A stretch of 44,603 bases of DNA from a virus (Duplodnaviria > Caudoviricetes), in IMG/VR virus record IMGVR_UViG_3300037692_000114, positions 1 through 44,603 of that record. One strand, 5' to 3'. The notes under the pieces were generated by a model. It saw nothing but the letters and a program-made list of their open reading frames with translations. It was not told the DNA's origin and did not search any database. Position numbers and translations under genes: made by a program. This document shows, one piece after another, positions 6,465 through 44,495 of the stretch (positions are counted from its first letter, which is position 1; each line of letters starts with the position of its first letter).

Positions 6465-6971
6465 ATGGGGGCAGTGGTGAGCCTAGATGAAGCTATGGCA
6501 GCGGAAGTCGAGGAAGAGCCCGTCACATTAAGCTGGCGCGAGGTGGATGCTTTGCTGCGCTACTGGGGATCGTCCCGGTGGCGAGTAGGACTGTGTGGTG
6601 GCTTCCCGCAGCAATCCGCCTGCGCTGGTAGGGTCGAACTGTACGAGCCGCGTGACTGGCTCCGTGTCCATCAACTAACGGCACAAGGGCGCCAAAAAAC
6701 ACACTACGGCGGCCATCGCATCCTGTACTACGGAGCATGGGCTGTCTCAGAGCGGCTGCTATCCATCAACGCCGCCGTGAACACGCTGCCTGAGCCGCAG
6801 TTTCGCGCCATCTTCGCAGCCTATGCTATTGGTTACATTTCCAACGAGGACTTTAGCCACAAGCAAAAGGCGGCGATACTCGAGATCACGCCGGACGCAT
6901 TTAGCGAGCGGTTACGGCGGGCGCGAAAAAAACTCGCGGTCATTCTTGCAAATGCAACGGGGCGGCGGTAA
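6465..6971 (+). CDS. late transcription regulator (antiterminator Q or sigma region 4-like)
   Basis: LLRYWG near the N-terminus; INAAVNTLPE...QKAAILEITPDAFSERLRRARKKL HTH; last gene before the late region. Confidence 0.72.
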   Translation: MGAVVSLDEAMAAEVEEEPVTLSWREVDALLRYWGSSRWRVGLCGGFPQQSACAGRVELYEPRDWLRVHQLTAQGRQKTHYGGHRILYYGAWAVSERLLSINAAVNTLPEPQFRAIFAAYAIGYISNEDFSHKQKAAILEITPDAFSERLRRARKKLAVILANATGRR

Positions 6972-6974
6972 AAA
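6946..6974 (+). promoter_or_regulatory. possible pR'-like late promoter
   Basis: TTGCAA-17 bp-TAAAAA at the end of the Q-like gene, about 30 bp before a terminator; the -10 is imperfect. Confidence 0.3.
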
Positions 6975-7000
6975 GAACACTATTGTCAAAAATAGTCACT

Positions 7001-7026
7001 AAAGCCCCGCCACAAGCGGGGTTTTT
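7001..7026 (+). terminator. intrinsic terminator, possibly bidirectional
   Basis: AAAGCCCCGC-CACAA-GCGGGGTTTTT. Confidence 0.8.
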
Positions 7027-7085
7027 AGCTTTTACGCCTCTCGTCACGTCCCCGACGAGCCCTTACGCCCGCCCTGACCGGTGGG

Positions 7086-7303: not shown

Positions 7304-7555
7304 TCAGCGGGCGACATAGGTTCCGGCGGCATTTGGATTGTGATCCACCCGATAGACAGCGGCCACGAATTCCTGCCACGTATATGCACGTTGCGACGAC
7401 AGCGGCAAAAAGCCGCGTAGTTCACGCATGGCTTGCTGCGTTTCCGCCCAATTGCCCTCTGGTTTGTGATCCAGGATTCGCGCCGCCATCGAAAGATCCC
7501 GGCTCTTTCCAGTGCGTGCCAATATCACAGCCTGCTGCAGTGTTTGCTTGCTCAT
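7304..7555 (-). CDS. hypothetical protein (83 aa)
   Basis: MSKQTLQQAV...; closely spaced between two same-strand ORFs. Confidence 0.55.
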   Translation of the reverse strand: MSKQTLQQAVILARTGKSRDLSMAARILDHKPEGNWAETQQAMRELRGFLPLSSQRAYTWQEFVAAVYRVDHNPNAAGTYVAR

Positions 7556-7559
7556 TTTC

Positions 7560-7784
7560 CTATGCCTCGTCGTAAGCGGCCCAGGCGTGCCCGGTGCCGG
7601 TGTATCCATCCGGATTGCGCGCGCGCCGTGCTTTGCGGGCCGGCTTGGCGCTTTGCCGAGCCTGCATACGGGCCCGTATGGCGCGCAGCTGCTCTACAGT
7701 CATGCAGAGTTTGTCTGCAGATTCCGCATCCCGCTCGTCGAGCAGACGCTGTTTGAGGGCAGCTAATTCAGCTTTGTCGCTCAT
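7560..7784 (-). CDS. hypothetical basic protein (74 aa)
   Basis: GGGAGA ribosome-binding site upstream on the minus strand. Confidence 0.6.
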   Translation of the reverse strand: MSDKAELAALKQRLLDERDAESADKLCMTVEQLRAIRARMQARQSAKPARKARRARNPDGYTGTGHAWAAYDEA

Positions 7785-9036: not shown

Positions 9037-12000
9037 ATGCGCATACTCGGTACGCTTGCTATTGCCGGTAGCGGCGGGGATACCGAAGCACCCACACAGC
9101 CGCAGAATCTCATCGCGAGTGCAATCAATCGGCAGCGGATCGACCTGACGTGGACGGCCTCGACAGACAATATAGGGGTGACTGGATATCAGATTTTCCG
9201 GGGTGGCAACCAGCTCACGACGACCACGCTGACCAGTTACAGCGACACGACGGTCACGGCGAGTACGGCGTACAGCTACACGGTGGTGGCATACGACGGC
9301 GCCGGGAATAATTCCCAGGCTTCGGCTTCGGCTCAAGCAACGACTCCGGCGAATGCCTCGCCGAGCTGGCAGGCGATCCCCGATCAGACATTGATCGTCG
9401 GGGATTCGTATGCGCTCAACCTGAACGATTTCTGCACGGATGCCGATGCCGACACGGTCCAGTATTCGATTCCTACCGGTACTTTATCGACGGGCGTGAC
9501 GCTGGTCGGTGCGTCGATCTCCGGAACACCGACGGTGGCCGGTCAGATATCGACAGTGACCGTCAGGGCCTATGACGGCTTCGTGAATGTCGATACGACG
9601 ATTGATTTTTCGACATTCGACACGGATGTTACGGCGCCGCCTGTTCCAGCCGGGCTCAATGCATCTGCTTCATCGTCATCTCAGATCACTCTGACCTGGA
9701 GCGCGTCCACCGATGTACAGGGTGGTGCGAATGAGTATGTCTCCGGGACTCAGGACTACCGGATCTATCGCGCGACCGATCAGGCTACATTTTCTCTGCG
9801 ATCCACGACCAGCAGCCTGAGCTATCCAGATACCGGGTTAAGCGCGAGCACGCGCTATGACTACAAGATCGCTGCTCGTGATACAGAGTTGAACGAATCC
9901 ACTCAGTCCGCGGCGGTCAACGCCACGACGACGGCAGTGATTCTCGAATCTGCCATACGGTTCCATCCTGGGCACTATGGCCAGCTTAGAACGGTCGCGG
10001 GCGTCAAGACCAGCGAGTCTGTGATTCTTGCGGATCTCGCGGTGATCTCCGCAAATTCCGGTGAGGCGAATATCGTCGGGTGGGCGGCTAATTTTGCGTG
10101 GAAGCAGATCGAGACATCGCAAGGCGTCTACGATTTCACCACGCCGGACAGATACTTTAACGCCTGCAAGGCAATCGGCAAGCGCTTCATTTTCCGCCTG
10201 GACTATCGACGCTACAGCGGCGATGGGACGCAGAGCGTAGTCCCGGCGTACCTGTATCCGGCCGGACAAGTCGCCGCAGCAGATGGAGGCGCAACGCCCA
10301 GGGACTGGGAAGCCTCTGTGATGGATCGGATTATCGCGTGCTATCAAGCAATAGCCGCGCACTACGATTCAGATTCGATGTTCGAGGCCGTGCAAGGCAT
10401 GGTGGAGACATCGGTCAGTTTCGATGCCACCTATCCGGCGCCGGCAAACTACACGACGACGAACAAGAAGACGCAGTACAAGCGGTGGATGGACGCGGTT
10501 CGCGGGCCGGTTGGGTTCCAGTCTTCGCAAGTGTGGTTCGGCCAAAATTATCTCGGCAACGAGAACGGCTCGGATTGCGAAGAGATGATCATCTACGCGA
10601 TGGCCTTGCGCATCGGCGTGGGCGGTCCGGATACCTGGCAATACGACTGGGTCGTGCCGCCGAATCAGAGCGGTAAACGTCCGCTGTGGTCGGATGAAGT
10701 CGCGCGTGGCGTGCGTGGCTCTGGAACGGATTATCGCCCATCACTTGCCTGGCCGCGCGAAGCGCAGGGCACGGAGATGGGCGGCTACATCGGCAACATG
10801 CTGCCGCAGAACATTCTGCAGTCGTGCAATTATGACGGCTCGCAGTGGATGATCTGGGACTACATCACGGCGGCAAATACTCCAGGTAGTACAGCGGCGA
10901 CGCAGTGGGGTAACGGATCGGCGCAGGGCACGTTGTGGGTGATCCGCAATCAAGCGGTCACCAACACAACGAATCCTTATGCCTCTGGTTTTTATCAGGC
11001 CGGACATTGGTCGGCGTCGCGCCAAGCACTGCGCACGATCTATCCGCGGCCGAACGCAGAAACGCCGAGTTGGGCGCGGCACCGCTGGGCGTATTACGAC
11101 GGTAGCAATACGGTCCAGTATCGCCTGCCTATTGGTGTCATGGGAGGGGCGTGGCCCTACGTGTACACGGTAGTGGCAGGCCCGAGCGGACTGTCCGTTG
11201 GCCGCTCCTACGGCGATACGGACTACGGCATCGTCAAGTGGACCCCGAATGGATCGCAGACCGGATCTGTTGTGACGATCCGCATCACCGACCAAGAACT
11301 GAATACGATCGATGTGACGTGGACGATCAGTACGTCATCGAGCACGGCGCAATTTTTGTTCGTTTCTACTAGCGGCAACGATACGACAGGCAATGGGACG
11401 ATCAGCGCGCCTTACGCCACGATCCAGAAAGTCTATGGGTCTGGCGGCGTCCTGAATCCGAACCGCATCGTGTACTTTCGTGGCGGGACTTACGCGACGT
11501 TCGCACAGAACGCGACGTTTGGCATCAATTGTGTGGACGATACAAGCCCGATGGCGATGCAGAATTTCCCCGGCGAGACAGTGACGTTCAATCACGCGAT
11601 TGCCGGCAGTACATCGGCATGGAGTTCCAATGCCGGCAGCCACGACTGGTTTGTCTATGGCATCGGAATAACGGGCGGGCCGGTCGGATCGACTAATTTC
11701 AGGCACTTTCACAACGGCGGAAAGAACAATCGCCTCACGATCGGCAAGTGCTCAGCGCCTGACGTATGGGGCGGAACCTCCCCCGATGACAACGCAACTG
11801 TTGTCTTTCTCTCGTCGACCGGCAGCGGCATGCGCCAGTATCTGTATTTCCCTGAGTTGGTCGAGACGAATCGCAGCGGTGGAAATTGTGGCGGCGGCTT
11901 CATTGCATTTACCTGCCAGTATTTGCTGGCAGAGCGCTGCAGCGTGACGGGAAGCACCGGCGGCTTCGATCTGTTGCTCAAGGCCGCGACGCAAGATTGT

Positions 12001-12974: not shown

Positions 12975-14894
12975 ATGGCGAAGCGAACCATGTTTCGCGG
13001 CAAGACCTCCGCGACGATCTCGGTATTTATCCGCAATTCATCGACTGGCGCACCGCTCACGGGATTGGTTTTCAACACCTCTGGACTGGTGTGCTCTTAC
13101 GCGACGGATCAAGTCGCACGTGCTGCGGTGACGCTCGCGACGTTAGCTGCAGCCGATTCGGCATGGTCCTCGGGCGGATTCAAAGAAATCGACGCCACCA
13201 ACATGCCCGGTGTGTATCGCTTCGATATTCCCAATGCAGCGTTGGCCGCTGGAGAGGGCGTTTCCTTTGCATTTACGGGCGCCAGTTCGTTGTGCAATTT
13301 CGAGATCGATCTGTGGGCAGTGAATCCACAAAATGCAACTCGCATGGGCATGACGGCCTTCCCAGATGTCGCAACCGGAAATGCAGGCGCGGTGATCACC
13401 AGCGGTACGGGGACCGCGCAGATCTCGCTGTCCAGCGGCGGTGTTGCATTGTCTACCAGCGGATTAAATGCTGCCGCCGATGCGGTATGGGACGAAGCGG
13501 CCTCCGGTCATGTGGCAGCAGGAAGCTATGGCCAGGCGCTGAACATCATTCGTGCCGGCACCGCTCAAGCAGGTGCTGGAACTACGATTACCCTGGATGC
13601 CAGTGCATCCGCGGTGGATGACTTCTACAACAATCAGAAGATCTTCATCACCGCCGGTACCGGTGTCGGGCAAGGTCGCATTATCAGCGACTATGTCGGC
13701 TCAACCAAGGTGGCTACCGTTCCGACGTGGGCTACTAATCCATCCTCGGATTCAGTCTTCGTCATCATGCCATTTGGTTCTATCCCAGGAGCAAGCGCAC
13801 CGACGGCGGGTGAAGTTGCCGATGCAGTGTGGGATGAGCTTCGTGCCGATCATCTGGTGTCCGGCAGTTTCGGTCAGGTCGGCGCCCTGGTATTGCGATC
13901 CGCGACCGCACAGGCGGGTACGTCATCCACCATCACGCTGGATGCCTCCGCAAGCGCAACCAACGACATCTACAACTACAACCAGATCACGGTGATTGCC
14001 GGTACTGGTGTGGGACAATCAAGACAGGTCACCGACTACGTCGGATCGAGCAAGGTTGCAACCGTAGGCGTAGCGTGGACCACAAATCCCTCCAGCGACT
14101 CGGTATTCCTGATCACCCCACTGGGTGTGGATGCCGCTACCCTCGCGGCGATTGCAGATTCGGTATGGGATGAGGCGAGAAGCGGCCATGCCACTGCCGG
14201 CACGTTCGGGGAATACGTCAATGCAGACACCATACGGCTCTCTGGCGACGCAACGGCGGCAGACAATGCAGAGTCGTTCTTCGATGGGACTGGATATGCA
14301 GGCACCAACAACGTGATTCCGAGCGTGACGACCGTCACTGGCAATGTTGCCGGCTCTGTGGCATCTGTAACCGGGCTCACGGCATCGGATGTCGGCGCCA
14401 TTAAAACCAAAACGGACTTCCTGCCATCCGCCACCGCGGGCGCTGCAGGCGGCGTGTTTATTGCTGGGGCGAATGCTGCGACCAGCATCACGACTGCATT
14501 GACAGCGAATATAACAGGTGATGTGACTGGCAACTTGAGCGGGTCGGCTGGGTCTGTGACCGGCGCGGTGGGATCTGTCACCGGCAACGTCGGTGGCAAT
14601 GTTGTAGGTTCCGTGGGCAGCGTGACGACGGTAGGCGATAAGACCGGCTACAGCCTATCAGCTGCTGGCGTGGATGCTATTCTCGATGAGGCTATTACAG
14701 AGCCGGCGGGTGTATTCTCGTGGGCGTCAGCAACCCCGCGAAACATCATCGGTTACGTAGGCGCAAAGGCGTCCAATCGAATTACACAGACGGCGACGAC
14801 ACAAACGCTGCGCGATCGTGCGAACACCGTCAATATTTCCACGGCCGCTGTGACATCCGATGGAACCACTACCGTGAAAGGGTCGGATACCTGA
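12975..14894 (+). CDS. 639-aa repeat-rich fibre-like virion protein
   Basis: Three ADxVWDE motifs, two ~100-aa TAQAG..TITLDASASA repeats, VTGNVGG/GSVGSV repeats. Confidence 0.75.
   Translation: MAKRTMFRGKTSATISVFIRNSSTGAPLTGLVFNTSGLVCSYATDQVARAAVTLATLAAADSAWSSGGFKEIDATNMPGVYRFDIPNAALAAGEGVSFAFTGASSLCNFEIDLWAVNPQNATRMGMTAFPDVATGNAGAVITSGTGTAQISLSSGGVALSTSGLNAAADAVWDEAASGHVAAGSYGQALNIIRAGTAQAGAGTTITLDASASAVDDFYNNQKIFITAGTGVGQGRIISDYVGSTKVATVPTWATNPSSDSVFVIMPFGSIPGASAPTAGEVADAVWDELRADHLVSGSFGQVGALVLRSATAQAGTSSTITLDASASATNDIYNYNQITVIAGTGVGQSRQVTDYVGSSKVATVGVAWTTNPSSDSVFLITPLGVDAATLAAIADSVWDEARSGHATAGTFGEYVNADTIRLSGDATAADNAESFFDGTGYAGTNNVIPSVTTVTGNVAGSVASVTGLTASDVGAIKTKTDFLPSATAGAAGGVFIAGANAATSITTALTANITGDVTGNLSGSAGSVTGAVGSVTGNVGGNVVGSVGSVTTVGDKTGYSLSAAGVDAILDEAITEPAGVFSWASATPRNIIGYVGAKASNRITQTATTQTLRDRANTVNISTAAVTSDGTTTVKGSDT
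13476..14220 (+). repeat. intragenic tandem duplication (two full units plus a partial third)
   Basis: Shared TITLDASASA, AGTGVGQ.R...DYVGS.KVATV and TNPSSDSVF between units; coordinates approximate. Confidence 0.85.
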
Positions 14895-15112
14895 TGTCAT
14901 TTGATACCGAAGCTGAACAGTATGGGGCTTTGAACTTTGGTGCGCCATTCATGGTGTCACTGACGTTTCCGGACGCTAGCAATCTAGATACCGAACTTGA
15001 GCGCACTTCGTTCCTGCGCTTGTCGCCGGAAATCACACCGTCTGCTGCTGGTGGAACATCCAGCGCGACGAAGCATCACATGAGTCTGTCGCTGGGGCTT
15101 GGATTGTTATGA
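14894..15112 (+). CDS. 72-aa putative spike adaptor ending in MSLSLGLGLL
   Basis: TGATG and ATGA coupling on both sides; start corrected from the ORF track. Confidence 0.65.
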   Translation: MSFDTEAEQYGALNFGAPFMVSLTFPDASNLDTELERTSFLRLSPEITPSAAGGTSSATKHHMSLSLGLGLL

Positions 15113-15366
15113 GTTCCGAAAAAGTCAGTCGAGAGGTTTCTGCCGCAACCGGCAGCGTCACGGTTACTAACAGTGACGATACCGTGCATGACCCACCGGG
15201 GCGTGCGCTATACGTTGGTACAGGCGGCTCCCTTGCCGTGCGAATGGCCGGGGACGGATCACTGCCTGTGTTGGCCAATGTGGCCAATGGCACAATGTTG
15301 TCTATCGCCGTTGACAAGGTGCTGGCAACTGGCACTACGGCATCTGACATCTTGTTGCTGCGCTAA
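15109..15366 (+). CDS. head spike base protein, RcGTA Rcc01079-like
   Basis: 85 aa; VT.SD......RALYVGTGG.L.V.M......V..G..L...V..V.ATGTTA..I pattern typical of this family. Confidence 0.85.
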   Translation: MSSEKVSREVSAATGSVTVTNSDDTVHDPPGRALYVGTGGSLAVRMAGDGSLPVLANVANGTMLSIAVDKVLATGTTASDILLLR

Positions 15367-15728
15367 TGCTCGGCCGAATCGATCTTCAGCTACTCGGCCC
15401 GCCCATCGGGGAAGCGCTCACGCCGAGGATTCGAGAGGGCGAGGCCTTCCGGGTGACAGTTAGAGCGCTTACCGCGGATCTTGCTGCCGCAACACCGAGC
15501 GCGATGAAGTACAGGATCGATGACCTGAACCAAGGCAGCGCAGTACTGGACTGGACCGCAATGACCCCAGCGACATCGGTCAACGTCATCATCACCGCGG
15601 CCCAGAATGCTATGCGCAATGGGCTATGCGTCGAGCGGCGCCAACTGGTGTTCGAGGCCAGTGATTCGGATGGGCCTGTACGGAGAACGCTGGACTACGA
15701 CATTCAAGACCTTCAGGGAATTTCATGA
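15366..15728 (+). CDS. single beta-sandwich (Ig/BppU-like) structural protein
   Basis: IREGEAFRVTV...YRIDD...V.DWT...I.ITAAQN; coupled to the spike base gene. Confidence 0.5.
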   Translation: MLGRIDLQLLGPPIGEALTPRIREGEAFRVTVRALTADLAAATPSAMKYRIDDLNQGSAVLDWTAMTPATSVNVIITAAQNAMRNGLCVERRQLVFEASDSDGPVRRTLDYDIQDLQGIS

Positions 15729-15730
15729 AC

Positions 15731-15856
15731 CGAACCGTGGCGGAATTGGTAGACGCACCCTCAAATAGCAGGGCACTGCGGCTGCTGCACGTGAACACAT
15801 ACCGTGCGGATGCCGGAGGGCGCCTGATGCTGGTTCGAATCCAGCCGGTTCGACCA
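15731..15856 (+). ncRNA. tRNA-like RNA (Leu-type frame) with about 45-50 extra nt in the anticodon/variable region
   Basis: Acceptor CGAACCG/CGGTTCG plus A-CCA; D arm GCG-GAATTGGTAGA-CGC; T arm GCTGG-TTCGAAT-CCAGC; no canonical 7-nt anticodon loop. Confidence 0.85.
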
Positions 15857-16035
15857 TGAACGGCAAAGACCTGAAAGTCACCGCAGTAGCCAACGAGGTA
15901 TACGGCTATCTCACCGAGATGTGCCATTCATCCGGAATCGACATCGCTGACCTGATCCGGGAGCTATCGAGCAAGCAGCAGTTGATTGACCTGCGCAGGG
16001 GCGTGATGGAGACGCAGGCAGAGGTGGCGAATTGA
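15856..16035 (+). CDS. hypothetical protein (59 aa)
   Basis: ATG overlaps the terminal A of the tRNA-like CCA; MNGKDLKVTAVANEVYGYL... Confidence 0.45.
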   Translation: MNGKDLKVTAVANEVYGYLTEMCHSSGIDIADLIRELSSKQQLIDLRRGVMETQAEVAN

Positions 16036-16295
16036 TCAAGATTGTAAGACTAAAGGCCAAGGATCTATTCCCGGATGTTCCGATTGTGCTTGGGTGGCGC
16101 GAGCATCCGAATGTTGGCTGGTATCGATTCGTGTGTATCAGAATGCCGTGGAAGCGCGAACTCTATGACATCTCTTCTGACGAATGGAGGCTTCAGAAGC
16201 CACGCTGGTATTTTGGGCTATTCGTAGTCAATCCAGGGCCATCAAGACGGGCTCATGCTCGTAAGACGGCGAACATGGCGCGCGCAAATGGCTGA
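16032..16295 (+). CDS. hypothetical protein
   Basis: GAGGTG upstream, TTGA overlap. Confidence 0.45.
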   Translation: MIKIVRLKAKDLFPDVPIVLGWREHPNVGWYRFVCIRMPWKRELYDISSDEWRLQKPRWYFGLFVVNPGPSRRAHARKTANMARANG

Positions 16296-16674
16296 TACAC
16301 CACAAAGAAGCCCTAGGCTTGCCGCGTATCGGGGGGAGTACCGGAAGAACCTGCGCGAGAAGATCGACGCAGACGGTGCTCTGGCCGATATCGAGAGGGT
16401 CAACAAGAAGATCAAGGCGAAATGGAGGTCGCTTGAACCGGCTCAAGTCGGCGCCCTGAAGCTGCTTTCCGATAACAGTTGGCGGAAGCTCGGGAAGCTC
16501 CTGCCAGATCTGAAGGCTGTCGAGCACGATCCGGGGGAGCACGCAGAGAACCTTGCACGGGATCAAATGAATGTCCGCCTTGCCGAACTTTACGCCTCAG
16601 CACATAGCCGCATTGACGGACGAGGAAGCGCTGGAGTTGTACCGGTTGACGACAGCCCTGCAACGACTCACTGA
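16288..16674 (+). CDS. terS: terminase small subunit
   Basis: Position directly before TerL; LREKI...QV.ALKLL...KLLPDLKAVE pattern; overlaps TerL by about 100 nt. Confidence 0.7.
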   Translation: MADTPQRSPRLAAYRGEYRKNLREKIDADGALADIERVNKKIKAKWRSLEPAQVGALKLLSDNSWRKLGKLLPDLKAVEHDPGEHAENLARDQMNVRLAELYASAHSRIDGRGSAGVVPVDDSPATTH

Positions 16675-18031
16675 GCGCGAAAAACTGTACAGCTACTACC
16701 CGGATGAAGGGCCGCTGCGGCGAGAGTTGTACGTCAAGCATCTGGAGTTCTTTCGGCTAGGCGCGAAGTTTAAGCAGCGACTTGCTCTTTGCGCCAATCG
16801 CATTGGCAAAACGGAGGGCATGGGCGGGTACGAGATGACCTGTCATCTCACTGGAATCTATCCATCGTGGTGGGAGGGCCATCGCTTTAGCAGGCCGGTG
16901 ACTGCGTGGGTTGCTGGCGAGACAGCTAAGGACGTTCGCGATTCGGTGCAGGTCAAGCTGTGCGGTCCGATGAGCGATCTAGGAACCGGGCTAATACCGG
17001 CGGCCAACATAGGCAGGCATACGTCTAAGGGTGGCGTGCCGGACGCGATTGATACGCTGTATGTGAAGCATGCGAGCGGGAAGCTATCGTCTATAGCCTT
17101 CAAGTCATACGACCAGGGCCGCGAAAGCTTTCAGGCAGCTGATGTCGATGTGCTGTGGTTGGATGAAGAACCACCGCTTTCGATATACGCCGAGGCCGTA
17201 ACCAGAACGATGACGACGCTCGGGCTCGTCATGCTGACGTTCACGCCGTTGTTGGGCATGTCCGAGACGGTGTTGCAGTTCTTACCAGGCGGTGAGATTG
17301 CGGAGCGTCAGGATCAGACACGCGCCGTGCTGATGGCGACGTGGGCAGATGCGCCGCATCTAACGCAAGAGATGCAGCAGGCGATGCTTGAGACGTATCC
17401 GCCATACCAGCGTGATGCGAGAAGCAAAGGCGTCCCTGCCCTTGGAGCTGGTGCCATTTATCCGGTGCCTGAGAGTGACATCTCCTGTGAACCGTTTGAG
17501 ATCCCAGATCATTGGCCGCGGTGCTATGCGCTCGACGTCGGCTGGAATCGCACGGCCGCGCTTTGGTTTGCGTTGGATCGCGAGTCGCAGACTGTCTATG
17601 CGTACTCAGAGCATTATCGAGGGCAGGCCGAGCCTTCGGTGCATGCTGAATCAATCAAGGCGCGCGGTGACTGGATTCCAGGCGTGATTGATCCGGCTGC
17701 ACGTGGCAGATCACAGAAAGACGGCGAGCAGCTGCTGGCACAATATCAGGAACTCGGCTTGCAACTGACGACAGCAAACAACGCACGTGAGGCTGGTATC
17801 TATGCTGTATGGCAGCGCTTGTCTGGCGGGCGGTTCAAAGTGTTCAAGACCCTGCAAAACTGGTTCGCTGAGTACCGGTTATATCGAAGGGATGAGAAAG
17901 GCAACATCGTGAAGGCGAACGACCACTTGATGGATGACACACGATACGGAGTGCTTTCTGGTCTGGATGTCGCATGCACTAAGCCAACTCCGTACAACGA
18001 CACGCAATCGTTCTGCGCCGACTTCGCTTAA
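16571..18031 (+). CDS. terL: terminase large subunit (P22 gp2-like)
   Basis: ANRIGKT Walker A, FKSYDQGRESFQ, WLDEEPP Walker B, LTFTP, ALDVGW, NDHLMD..RY. Confidence 0.96.
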   Translation: MSALPNFTPQHIAALTDEEALELYRLTTALQRLTEREKLYSYYPDEGPLRRELYVKHLEFFRLGAKFKQRLALCANRIGKTEGMGGYEMTCHLTGIYPSWWEGHRFSRPVTAWVAGETAKDVRDSVQVKLCGPMSDLGTGLIPAANIGRHTSKGGVPDAIDTLYVKHASGKLSSIAFKSYDQGRESFQAADVDVLWLDEEPPLSIYAEAVTRTMTTLGLVMLTFTPLLGMSETVLQFLPGGEIAERQDQTRAVLMATWADAPHLTQEMQQAMLETYPPYQRDARSKGVPALGAGAIYPVPESDISCEPFEIPDHWPRCYALDVGWNRTAALWFALDRESQTVYAYSEHYRGQAEPSVHAESIKARGDWIPGVIDPAARGRSQKDGEQLLAQYQELGLQLTTANNAREAGIYAVWQRLSGGRFKVFKTLQNWFAEYRLYRRDEKGNIVKANDHLMDDTRYGVLSGLDVACTKPTPYNDTQSFCADFA

Positions 18032-20119
18032 ATGCCGCGCCCCACGAACGCCGAAGTCTCGACCAAGCTACTGGCCGAGGTGAAGGAGAATTACAGCCGC
18101 TCTATCTCTGCCGACTCGACCAATCGCGAACTCGCGCTCGAAGATATCCGCTTCGTGGATGAGGAGGGCGCGCAGTGGGATGATGAGACGCGCAAGAATC
18201 GCGGCTCACGTCCGTGCTACTCGTTCGACCGCACGTCCATCGCAATAGATCAGGTCAAGGGCGATCAGCGGCAGAACACGCCGCAGATCAAGGTTCTACC
18301 GATTGATGACAAGTCGGACCGCAAGAAGGCGGAGATATTCGAAGGACTGATTCGAGCGATTGAGCGCAATTCCTCAGCGAAGACCGCGTACAACACCGGC
18401 TTCGATTTCGCGCTGAAGGGTGGATTCGGTGCATGGCGGGTGTATCCGAAGTATGTCGAGGACAGCTTCGACCAGGAACTTTGCATCGGACGTATTGAGA
18501 ATCCGTTCACCGTTCACTTCGATCCTTCTGCAAAGGATTACCTGAAGCGAGATTCCGAGTGGGTCATCGTCACCGAACGTATATCGAAGGACGCGCACGA
18601 CGCGCAATACAGTGCGATTGAGGCTGCGGATTTGGACCTGTCGCAGCACGATCATGACTGGATTAACGACAAGGAGGTGCGCGTCGCCGAGTATTACAAG
18701 CGCATGCGGCGTAAGAAGACGATTGCGCTGCTGGATGACGGCCGTGTCATCGATTACGACGCCATCAAGGCCATCGAGAAAGAGTTACTGGACCCGCCTC
18801 CAGGTTCTGGTATCGCACCGATCCGAGTGATCAAGAAGCGCGAGGCGGATACGACCTACGTGCGCTGGTGGAAGCTGTCGGGTAAGGGCGTGATCGAAGG
18901 CCCTATCGACTACGAATGGAAGTACATCCCCATCGTGCCGATCTATGGTCGCGTGACTAACATCGAGGGCAAGCGCAAGTACCGCGGGCTGGTGAGGAAG
19001 GCTAAAGATCCGCAGAAGGCGTACAACGGTGCGAGAACCGCCGAGATCGAAGCCGTGGCGATGGTGCCGCGCTCGCCGTACATCATGCTACCAGGACAGA
19101 TCAAGGGACACGAGAACCAATGGCGCGAGGCGAACGCCAAGAATCCGCTGTTCCTGTACTACAACGCAGTTCCGAACGCACCGAACGCAGGAAAACCAAC
19201 GCGCGAATCGATGCCGGAGATTCCGCAAGCACTTATCGCGCTGAGCGCCCAGGCTGCGGATGACATTAAGGCGAGCACTGGCAAGTTCGGGCCCAGCCTG
19301 GGCGAGCCGCAGGCGAATGAACTTCCGGGCGCCATCAGGCAGCGGAATACCGAAGGCGATGTCAGCTCCTACGAGTTCATCGACAACTTGGCCGAGTCGA
19401 TCAAGTACACCGGTGAGATCCTGGTGGACATGATTCCTAAGGTGTATGACGGCGAACGCATCGTCCGTATCCTAGGTATCGATGGCAAGGAAGCGTTCGA
19501 GTCGATCAACCAGCGCGGACCTGACGGCAAGTTGGTCAACGACCTGTCACAAGGGCGGTTCGATGTGACCGTGGATGTGGGCCCTGCCTACACCACGCAG
19601 CGACAGCAGGCCGCGGATTACTTGCTCAAGTTCGCATCCACCTCTGATCAGGTCAAGCAGCTGGCCTCCGATCTCATCGCCAAGTCCCTTGACTTCAAGG
19701 GCGCGGATGAACTGGAGCGCCGCCTGCGAATCCCGCTGATTCAACAGGGCGTGATTCCACAGGATCAACTGACGGACGAGGAAAAGGCGATGCAGCCGCA
19801 AGGCCCGCCGCCGCCAGATCCGACGCAGGTTGCATTGACGAACAAGCTCAACGCGGAGGCCGCTCGGGCACAGGCACAGGCACTGCAGACGCAGGTCGAA
19901 ACGGCGACTGCTTCCATCACGGCCCAGATGAAGCCGCAGGAACTGCAGAAGCTAGTTGCCGAAACGATCTTCCAGCAGTTGCAGAACATGCAACTCGCCG
20001 GTGAGATCGGGATAGACCCGAGGACCGGGCAGATGCGGTTGATGAAGTACTTGAATACCGGGAACGAACTGGCGCAGCCGCGTGAGCCCAGGAGGATTCA
20101 GGCGCGGGTTATCGGTTGA
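18032..20119 (+). CDS. portal protein (P22 gp1-like)
   Basis: 695 aa; QWD...RP, G.G.WRV, YIPIVP.YG, GLVR.AKDPQ..YN, G.FDVTVDVGP.Y.T.RQ; Q-rich C-terminal barrel region. Confidence 0.93.
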   Translation: MPRPTNAEVSTKLLAEVKENYSRSISADSTNRELALEDIRFVDEEGAQWDDETRKNRGSRPCYSFDRTSIAIDQVKGDQRQNTPQIKVLPIDDKSDRKKAEIFEGLIRAIERNSSAKTAYNTGFDFALKGGFGAWRVYPKYVEDSFDQELCIGRIENPFTVHFDPSAKDYLKRDSEWVIVTERISKDAHDAQYSAIEAADLDLSQHDHDWINDKEVRVAEYYKRMRRKKTIALLDDGRVIDYDAIKAIEKELLDPPPGSGIAPIRVIKKREADTTYVRWWKLSGKGVIEGPIDYEWKYIPIVPIYGRVTNIEGKRKYRGLVRKAKDPQKAYNGARTAEIEAVAMVPRSPYIMLPGQIKGHENQWREANAKNPLFLYYNAVPNAPNAGKPTRESMPEIPQALIALSAQAADDIKASTGKFGPSLGEPQANELPGAIRQRNTEGDVSSYEFIDNLAESIKYTGEILVDMIPKVYDGERIVRILGIDGKEAFESINQRGPDGKLVNDLSQGRFDVTVDVGPAYTTQRQQAADYLLKFASTSDQVKQLASDLIAKSLDFKGADELERRLRIPLIQQGVIPQDQLTDEEKAMQPQGPPPPDPTQVALTNKLNAEAARAQAQALQTQVETATASITAQMKPQELQKLVAETIFQQLQNMQLAGEIGIDPRTGQMRLMKYLNTGNELAQPREPRRIQARVIG

Positions 20120-43171: not shown

Positions 43172-43963
43172 TCAGGACTGCTGCATCCCCGACTGCCACA
43201 TGGCCAAGTAGGTATCGACGACGAATTTGTCGATCGCGCGTTCGTCAGGCTGATCCGGCAGTAATCCGCTGTCCAACGAGTCCCGCAACTCGCGCTCCAG
43301 TTCACCGGCCCTGGTCAGGACTTCCTGAAAGTTCAGTTTGCCGGTACGGATTGCGACCACCTCTTCCCGTTCGGCCTTCCGCATTGGCAGCGACATGGTC
43401 CCTGTCGTCATCAACTCGATCCCCTGGTGCGCTAGGCGTACCACATGGCCGGCGTACTTCGTATCGAATCCGTACTGCTCGACCAGTTCGGGTCGGTGAA
43501 TCCGCATCTGCCCGCGTTCGCCCATCAATCGCTGTTTCTGCGCGACCAAATACCCGAGGAAGGATTTGCCGACCTGCTTGGATAGAAACATCGATTTCGC
43601 CTGTCTCAGTGCGTGGCCAAATCCATGCGTCTTGTCGATTAGCGCGTCAGGCTTAACGTATAGCGGCAGGAGGATTGTCGGGTTGCCCTTGGCCGCTAGT
43701 CGAGAGAACTTGCGCAGCGTATGCACGGTGAGATCCAGATCTCCCGGCCCAGAACGAACTCCATCCGGCTGCGTCCTGTACACCATCGTTTCGAAGTGAT
43801 GAAGTCCCACCACCTTTTCGGGCGGCTCGATGCAGATCGCCATCTCATCCCGGTCATCGGTGCCGGCTACCGCGGTACCGTGCACCGTAGAGCCCACAGT
43901 CGCTTGCAGGATGATGACTGAGCCCTTCGGCAGCCCCTTCCATTGCTCGGCTGGATTAACCAC
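43172..43963 (-). CDS. Pol-beta superfamily nucleotidyltransferase (YcgL/RlaP-like)
   Basis: VGSTVHGT....DD.D, D.T...L.KF..L..KGNP..L, GY...Q, GFDTKYA.HVVRL, IR.G, LP..PD. Confidence 0.88.
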   Translation of the reverse strand: MVNPAEQWKGLPKGSVIILQATVGSTVHGTAVAGTDDRDEMAICIEPPEKVVGLHHFETMVYRTQPDGVRSGPGDLDLTVHTLRKFSRLAAKGNPTILLPLYVKPDALIDKTHGFGHALRQAKSMFLSKQVGKSFLGYLVAQKQRLMGERGQMRIHRPELVEQYGFDTKYAGHVVRLAHQGIELMTTGTMSLPMRKAEREEVVAIRTGKLNFQEVLTRAGELERELRDSLDSGLLPDQPDERAIDKFVVDTYLAMWQSGMQQS

Positions 43964-44495
43964 GTAGCGCCTCCTGAACGCGCGCTTCCTGCGCTTGGAC
44001 TACGATCTGAGTGGCCATCGCATGCAAGGTAGGATCGCCTTCCTTCAGAACCTCCAGCAACCTCTCCTTTTCGCGAATGTAGACCTTGGCGAAGTCCGGA
44101 TCTAACGCAAGTATGCTTCGGCTATTGTCGATCAGGTCCGCCAGCTTCACGGTCTTAGCCTTCGATGGCGCGTCCGCGGTGTGCTCGCGGTCCATTGCCT
44201 TCCGTACGGCACGGTTGCCGTCTTCTGGCTTGCTCGCGTCGGTCAACCACCCGACCAGCTCAGCGACCTCGGTACCGAACTCGTTTTGCACCTCGGCAAG
44301 CGTACACGGCGTATCCTCGACGACATCGTGAAGCCATGCCGCGGCCAGCATGATCTCGTCGTGTGGAACGCTAGCGACCAGTGCCGCCACCTCCGCAGGA
44401 TGATGAATATACGGCTCACCGGTGTACTTGCGCACCTGCCCGATACTGCCGTGCCATTTCGCTGCGAACTCGGCGGCCCGCTTTTCAAGATTCAT
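43956..44495 (-). CDS. HD-domain small alarmone hydrolase (SpoT/Mesh1-like)
   Basis: H...GQ.RKYTGEPYI.HP, AAWLHDVVEDT, FG.EVA.LV..LTD, VKLAD..DN. Confidence 0.9.
   Translation of the reverse strand: MNLEKRAAEFAAKWHGSIGQVRKYTGEPYIHHPAEVAALVASVPHDEIMLAAAWLHDVVEDTPCTLAEVQNEFGTEVAELVGWLTDASKPEDGNRAVRKAMDREHTADAPSKAKTVKLADLIDNSRSILALDPDFAKVYIREKERLLEVLKEGDPTLHAMATQIVVQAQEARVQEALRG

Follow-up and report, generated by a model that had tools for sequence, protein, structure and literature searches.

The RNA gene and its genomic context

The window, the whole stretch of 44,603 nucleotides analyzed here, is a 91% complete virus record (IMG/VR IMGVR_UViG_3300037692_000114) of a soil/sediment phage whose terminase, portal and coat genes are P22-like. 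A gene for a tRNA-shaped RNA lies on the coding strand, with tail and fibronectin-domain genes before it and the terminase gene after it. It begins 2 nt past the stop codon of the gene upstream, and its CCA end overlaps the start codon of the gene downstream. The features of the locus are the following.

15366..15728, + strand: upstream gene, 120 aa, function unknown; present in relatives without the RNA
15724..15730, + strand: left copy of a 7-bp direct repeat; holds the stop codon of the upstream gene
15731..15856, + strand: tRNA-Leu-shaped RNA gene, 126 nt, from +1 to the encoded CCA (sequence and Rfam)
15731..15737, + strand: 5' strand of the acceptor stem (C1-G72, G2-C71, A3-U70) (sequence; inverted repeat)
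15738..15757, + strand: U8, G9, Leu-type D arm (A14, A15, G18, G19, A20a) and A26; D arm proper at 15740-15756
15758..15768, + strand: linker in place of the anticodon arm, predicted unpaired (fold prediction)
15769..15826, + strand: predicted 58-nt rod at the position of a type II variable arm (fold prediction)
15828..15845, + strand: U48 at 15828 and canonical T arm (G49-C65, C50-G64, U51-A63); T arm proper at 15829-15845
15846..15856, + strand: 3' strand of the acceptor stem, A73 and CCA; the final A is the A of the next gene's ATG
15855..15861, + strand: right-hand copy of the same 7-bp repeat; extends over the CCA end and the start codon of the downstream gene
15856..16035, + strand: downstream gene, 59 aa, function unknown; abuts or overlaps the upstream gene in empty-site relatives

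The two acceptor strands (15731-37 and 15846-52) pair at 7/7 positions, with A73 at 15853 and CCA at 15854-56. The perfect 7-bp acceptor, the A73-CCA end, the Leu-type D arm, the canonical T arm and the length of 126 nt that an earlier note on this DNA had described were all confirmed in place. The tRNA-likeness that it had proposed was supported by the Rfam tRNA model, which scored 37.9 bits on the 126-nt RNA (gathering score 29) with an above-chance E of 8.4e-6 on a 2.5-kb stretch; ARAGORN missed the gene, calling 0 tRNA genes in the entire window, and two whole-window Rfam scans did not pick it up. The LeuRS identity bases (A73, A15-U48, G18, G19, A20a and U54-A58) are all present, by a comparison with PMC9976931 that concerns presence only; in experiments described there, E. 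coli tRNA-Leu can lose both its anticodon arm and its variable arm and remain a substrate for charging, provided that A73 and the D/T contacts are retained. The combination of C1-G72 and A73 is like a proline acceptor.

No promoter-like site was found in 14800-16700, suggesting that the RNA is probably made within a long late transcript. We found no partner gene, and both neighbouring genes also occur without the RNA; the downstream 59-aa protein gave no family match, and its atlas matches were all below 0.9. Among the 61 ORFs scanned there was no match to the Ro60/TROVE or SmpB families and no aminoacyl-transferase. Elsewhere in the window, a gene for an RlaP-family nucleotidyltransferase adjoins an HD_4 hydrolase gene at 43172-44495 (- strand), a possible RNA-repair or alarmone module with no link to the RNA gene. 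The portal gene is locally divergent in near-identical strains (window 18223-18382 and 18032-20119), which suggests a recombined tract.

Structure of the centre

A 5-bp anticodon stem with a 7-nt loop, U33 and a Leu anticodon was not found in the RNA. A Leu(CAA)-like loop word occurs at 15760-15766, but no stem is in register with it and the wider class described below shows no enrichment of words of this kind; the earlier statement that there is no usable anticodon is thus upheld. None of 793 single excisions restored an anticodon arm, even in a relaxed test (4/5 pairs and U33), and no intron or ribozyme family of Rfam matched at E up to 10. Splicing to an ordinary tRNA, an outcome that the earlier note had raised, is not borne out by these excisions.

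With the shell enforced, the lowest-energy fold (-51.5 kcal/mol) contains the rod at 15769-15826, which is predicted to close 1 nt before U48; a core hairpin at 15779-15815 is common to all folds. The complementary strands recorded earlier (CCCTC at 15758-62, AGGG at 15770-73 and GAGGG at 15816-20) and the hairpin at 15779-15815 are present as described, but the two folds built on them are both energetically disfavoured against the rod. Under the same constraint fold A, in which the first five bases of the linker pair with 15816-15820, reached -48.8 kcal/mol (about 1% of the ensemble) and fold B -47.2 kcal/mol (about 0.2%). In unconstrained folding, under a model that ignores tertiary contacts, the D and T arms were not formed (pair probabilities 0.02-0.03) and paired with each other. 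The folding z was -2.5 both for the 126-nt RNA (1/200 shuffles as good) and for its 72-nt centre (2/300 shuffles as good). No two-sided covariation was seen for the rod, because just two lineages carry this centre, with one difference between them. Since the rod closes one base before U48, as the variable arm does in 63/100 canonical phage Leu tRNAs, it may be read as a greatly extended variable arm in an RNA that has lost its anticodon arm.

An IMG/VR search for relatives of the centre returned none except the near-identical genome. Plasmids held no relatives of the centre, cultured phages gave short arm matches only, among the matches listed, and 56/56 GTDB pattern matches failed the shell test.

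Empty sites in related phages

Ten loci were collected with the upstream protein as anchor; one belongs to a near-identical strain (L265/G006), in which the RNA is identical, and two of the rest are the same contig. All 8 of the other distinct contigs holding the upstream gene were without the RNA. In four of these eight the same gene pair abuts or overlaps, and the RNA aligns as a single gap. Neither of the two complete related records tested had an RNA match anywhere, and among 80 terminase-anchored loci the RNA was present in none but the near-identical one. The RNA is likely to be optional cargo.

Against the empty sites the RNA is a clean 131-bp indel flanked by the 7-bp repeat. Dropping one repeat copy and the interior recreates the stop/start overlap of the relatives L266 and L269, and the inserted unit spans the mature +1 to the CCA. 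A flanking repeat was rejected as a feature of the wider class: a 7-bp repeat occurs in 1/105 members, the window gene itself, and shuffled pairs reach at least 7 in 0.45% of cases, so that the repeat rests on the empty-site alignment. Since it is not a class feature, an RNA-templated origin of the insert is a possibility at most. No contigs with precise excision were seen in runs X1-X4.

Other insertions are found in this group of phages. An insert of about 200 nt, one gene further downstream, is near-identical among L267 (about 10545-10750), L266 (about 7390-7600) and L262 (about 1550-1702), all three without the window RNA, and is absent from the window and from L269. It folds into several hairpins, with no two-sided covariation and no Rfam match, and may represent either a short ORF or a second RNA cassette. 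Among its head genes (15250-16077), L266 has a match resembling a group I intron (E 3e-4), with an ORF inside it. Ordinary tRNA cargo also varies: after the sigma-region-4/HTH gene the near-identical strain L265 carries a tRNA-Ser(UGA) and the end of another tRNA (1-122), L266 carries a tRNA-Met-like gene (206-281), and the window has a terminator-like hairpin only (6970-7030).

Conservation in a diverged copy

A diverged copy of the locus was found in run X4, a separate soil study, on a 418-nt contig of depth 3.9 that spans 15645-16035. It differs from the window by 36 substitutions and 8 gaps overall, of which the RNA has 1 substitution and 0 gaps; the changes number 1/126 in the RNA against 35/265 in the flanks (Fisher P 9e-6). 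Conservation of the centre, which has 1 change in 72 nt, equals that of the shell. In the upstream gene 9/27 third codon positions differ, and the divergence of portal pieces from this run is about 10-15%. The single change in the RNA, T15792G, gives the core hairpin one more pair and takes its energy from -31.1 to -35.4 kcal/mol; of 216 possible substitutions, 5 are as stabilising. The change does not favour one fold over another. A constraint from the antisense ORF at 15610-15927 was ruled out, because X4 has indels and a change at the ORF start.

Beyond the RNA, the identity between X4 and the window continues for 17 nt on the upstream side and 8 nt on the downstream side; the absence of a long shared tract favours selection over long-tract transfer. 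Differences in the upstream gene amount to 11/75 for X4 and 19-29/75 for four empty relatives; X4 is thus the closer, which fits one gain followed by retention. Judged from this sequence comparison, the whole RNA is likely to be under selection, although the high identity, seen in one low-depth contig, could also come from a recent transfer.

A wider class of phage RNAs with Leu-type shells

To define a class, we used a pattern in which 55-85 nt separate a Leu D arm from a T arm. In 11/64 parts of IMG/VR 121 stretches matched it, giving an estimate of about 720 in all, and normal-length genes with the same arms were estimated at about 2800 in IMG/VR. Paired acceptor and T stems, which we call shells, were present in 89/104 distinct sequences with enough flank, and the acceptors paired at 6/7 positions or more in 90/104, against a mean of 19.6 with shuffled partners. 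Features that the pattern does not impose were also kept in the shells: U8 in 89/89, U48 in 88/89 and A73 in 69/89. A loose anticodon-arm test was passed by 3/89.

The centres of the shells fall into 71 clusters, with that of the window alone in its cluster. The last helix closes one base before N48 in 29/79 clusters (shuffled mean 10.8, max 22). Structured centres are a modest feature, 13/79 having z below -2. A retained Leu anticodon word was not enriched in the class (20/79 against 22.8), and CTCAA was found in 7/79 against 3.6, a level reached by 8/200 shuffles. Flanks of 3 kb or more were available for 66 members, of which 47 had no ARAGORN tRNA nearby. The class is mixed: 8/105 are like Leu tRNAs with a loop insertion, and some contain nested tRNAs. 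The window RNA has all the class features, including U51-A63, an unrelated centre and a helix closing one base before 48.

A control set drawn from 3/64 parts comprised 120 normal-length stretches, with 107 distinct sequences and 106 shells, of which 100 were canonical Leu tRNAs and 6 were set aside. An A-U/U-A pair at 51-63 is present in 74/88 long shells against 32/100 Leu tRNAs, a difference that holds within GC bins, and G2-C71 in 62/88 against 22/100; P values for such comparisons overstate the differences, since the members are related. A73 is found in 68/88 long shells against 100/100 Leu tRNAs, and with this position relaxed leucine charging cannot be general in the class. Predicted EF-Tu binding, computed with the energies of PMC3239215 (Table 2) for the 86/88 scorable members, was -9.72 kcal/mol for the class and -10.22 kcal/mol for the Leu tRNAs; the same article places the outlier line at 1.3 kcal/mol.

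Genes of this class escape standard tRNA annotation, as in the cultured phage Bacteroides BS-TP2, which carries an unannotated member at 19547-19663 of PQ571275.1; a Firmicutes-like member (L019) gave no cultured-phage match. A literature search that covered few subscription papers returned none on the class, and the set of 10,006 viral RNA candidates reported in PMC10690425 may list members.

Several subgroups were noticed. A shell subfamily (L017, L019, L023, L036, L100 and L008, at about 2490-2600 of 5-kb loci) has a centre in which, judged by eye, covarying partners appear to make a pseudoknot. Leu(UAA)-like tRNAs with a hairpin in the anticodon loop (L204, L211, L220, L225 and L246, 3994 onward in the oriented loci) are candidate mini-introns, and in L209, L217 and L222 a second tRNA is apparently nested in a Leu-type shell. 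Normal-length shells without a Leu anticodon arm also exist (L365, L399, L417 and L422), indicating that the class extends below 55 nt and that about 720 is a floor for the D-arm type.

Interpretation and alternatives

The gene is real and probably specifies a functional, non-decoding, tRNA-shaped phage RNA. Its centre is unrelated to those of other lineages and nearly fixed within its own, and thus behaves like a specificity element, which favours the reading of the RNA as a natural non-decoding tRNA scaffold presenting a lineage-specific hairpin to a host factor. We give this reading a probability of about 0.5. The suggestion of a non-decoding mimic or scaffold made in the earlier note gains from the 0/793 excisions, from the presence of the LeuRS elements and from a centre conserved like the shell in X4.

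The ends of tRNAs are trimmed by RNase P and 3' exonucleases. By analogy with this biochemistry, host enzymes would cut a stable 126-nt RNA from the phage late transcript, RNase P and 3' trimming releasing its two ends. LeuRS may be able to charge the product, which, from what is known of tRNA biochemistry, should not be able to decode. The hairpin would then likely be presented to a host tRNA-handling or defence protein and, in the most speculative step, might act as the specificity element in a phage-host conflict, one that would most plausibly be tRNA-centred. Anti-phage defences commonly target tRNA, which makes a widespread phage RNA without an anticodon a good candidate for RNA-based counter-defence. 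A broader proposal, that phages evolved natural tRNA scaffolds with exchangeable lineage-specific payloads against host tRNA-targeting defences or other host proteins, and that this copy came into a junction of coupled genes as a cassette with exactly the ends of the mature RNA, as would be expected from RNA-templated insertion, is put forward tentatively and is in our view doubtful as a whole. The selection on the centre, the empty-site relatives and the cultured member make the question testable.

Of the alternatives, a plain decoy survives best, although we consider it unlikely: the upper half would sequester effectors with affinity for the T arm, acceptor and CCA, and the centre would be filler by which the anticodon is removed. 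Shell features conserved across the class around unrelated centres agree with such a decoy. The T arm and the acceptor/CCA are where Cas12a3 binds, as characterized in PMC12851939, and it cleaves tRNAs without their loops, so that a decoy might act through the upper half. The X4 centre, however, with its single change in 72 nt, matches the shell in conservation. In the work reported in PMC13056530, the cuts made by AriB and bacterial Schlafen fall in the anticodon arm, and since this arm is absent from the window RNA a decoy for them fits poorly; the known rescue by phage tRNAs, in the cases given in PMC12409363, works via decoding variants. The earlier note had offered three options, of which the scaffold stands best. 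The decoy for anticodon nucleases fits least, since the RNA lacks an anticodon arm and anticodon-loop words are not enriched. The option of a dedicated processing signal is weak, given that these genes persist in syntenic relatives that do not have the RNA.

It is rather improbable that the gene is a decayed or hitch-hiking tRNA-Leu remnant, recently moved between related phages and without function. The patchy presence among relatives, the clean indel with its 7-bp repeat, which suggests insertion, the coming and going of ordinary tRNA cargo in the group and the single diverged copy seen are all in its favour. A remnant is nevertheless hard to reconcile with a shell in which every pair is perfect, with X4 identity that stops 17 nt and 8 nt outside the RNA and leaves no long shared tract, with an upstream gene closer in X4 (11/75) than in the empty relatives (19-29/75), and with a class that keeps the Levitt base, which the pattern did not impose, and a T-stem signature of its own.

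The position of the RNA, 2 nt past a stop codon and with its CCA overlapping the next ATG, could instead point to a cis element, that is, an RNase P cut site or a translational control uncoupling the head-decoration genes from the packaging genes. The lack of a promoter-like site in 14800-16700, which probably places the RNA inside a long transcript, is compatible with this, and maturation would cut the downstream start codon. Yet four syntenic relatives keep the gene pair without the RNA, a cut site needs no invariant 72-nt centre, and an ATG at the 3' end is found in 10/105 class members only; we regard a cis element as improbable.

Less probable again, and in our view very unlikely, is a leucine-charged non-ribosomal amino-acid donor like the staphylococcal non-proteinogenic tRNA-Gly. 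The LeuRS elements are present, A-U/U-A at 51-63 is the rule in the class (74/88 against 32/100 Leu tRNAs), and EF-Tu binding of the class is predicted to be weaker by 0.5 kcal/mol. The class members, however, are not independent samples, and the window RNA scored -9.7, a value as weak as that of 9/100 canonical Leu tRNAs and within the 1.3 kcal/mol used as outlier criterion in the analysis of PMC3239215. No aminoacyl-transferase was found among the 61 ORFs scanned.

An intron-containing tRNA that is spliced to an ordinary one, like the tRNA genes with introns of Lak phages (examples in PMC6784885), can be dismissed as highly improbable, since 0/793 single excisions yielded an anticodon arm by the relaxed test and Rfam gave no intron or ribozyme match at E up to 10. 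Pointing the other way are 8/105 class-pattern matches that are like Leu tRNAs with a loop insertion (5/5 stem, U33 and normal variable length) and the RlaP-family nucleotidyltransferase encoded in the window, far from the RNA.

Comparison with known systems

Membership in the known kinds of tRNA and tRNA-like RNA was considered, and a decoding tRNA, a spliced tRNA, YrlA, tmRNA and allo-tRNA each failed on defining features. For tmRNA there is A3-U70 instead of the G3-U70 alanine pair, no ARAGORN call and no tag frame. A non-proteinogenic tRNA was rejected since EF-Tu binding was not weaker by more than 1.3 kcal/mol (-9.7 against -10.2). C4-type antisense RNA is tRNA-like and processed by RNase P. 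It was rejected because complementarity to the phage's own genome was at control level, the best antisense word being 10 nt (controls mostly 10-11).

The soil-derived allo-tRNAs and irregular tRNAs, some of them possibly charged yet unused in translation according to PMC5389517, are defined there by 8/4 or 9/3 acceptor branches, whereas the window RNA is 7/5 and without an anticodon arm. YrlA Y RNAs (Rfam RF02553) are non-decoding tRNA mimics, phages included, and one of them is cut by RNase P and gains CCA, as reported in PMC4201824. YrlA genes lie beside Ro60/TROVE, of which there is none among the 61 ORFs of this 91% complete record, and the YrlA match of the window RNA comes from the T arm, scoring 24.2 bits where 69 is the threshold. 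Lak megaphage tRNA introns are likewise conserved inserts in oversized phage tRNA genes. Excision of the insert leaves a normal tRNA-Tyr in one supplementary entry of PMC6784885, however, and no such excision exists for the window RNA; the Leu D-arm motif was absent from the three supplement files of that article that were searched. With bacterial tRNA-Leu (Rfam RF00005) the RNA shares the D arm, A15-U48, A20a, the T loop, A73 and CCA, and it differs in having no anticodon arm, a length of 126 nt, C1-G72, G2-C71 and U51-A63.

T4 rnaC is the closest precedent. Like the window RNA, rnaC (species 1) and rnaD (species 2) are phage RNAs, 139 and 119 nt long by annotation, and both are treated in PMC9697503 and PMC3014915 as late RNAs of unknown function. 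The likeness of rnaC is one of architecture only, a canonical T arm and an acceptor-like stem of 5/7 pairs around a long centre. Unlike the window RNA, it lacks a Leu-type D arm and an encoded CCA and gave no match to the Rfam tRNA model at E 0.01, and it lies in a tRNA cluster whereas the window gene is alone in its genome record. Homology was not indicated, as no T4 match occurred among the best blastn rows (loci including L203) or the listed phage matches, and no sequence relationship between the centres is evident by eye. Both rnaC (L203 2409-2547) and the window RNA (15731-15852) open with C1-G72, G2-C71 and A3-U70, which may be chance.

Engineered tRNA scaffolds resemble the window RNA in keeping the acceptor, D and T arms while other RNA replaces the anticodon region, and foreign structured inserts carried in this way are processed and protected by host enzymes in E. 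coli, as in the constructs of PMC3753655. Such scaffolds are artificial and bear their hairpin at the anticodon position, whereas the predicted rod of the window RNA is at the variable-arm position. By analogy, the window RNA may work most like rnaC and like an engineered tRNA scaffold, and the class to which it belongs offers a comparative route into the old question of the role of T4 rnaC and rnaD.
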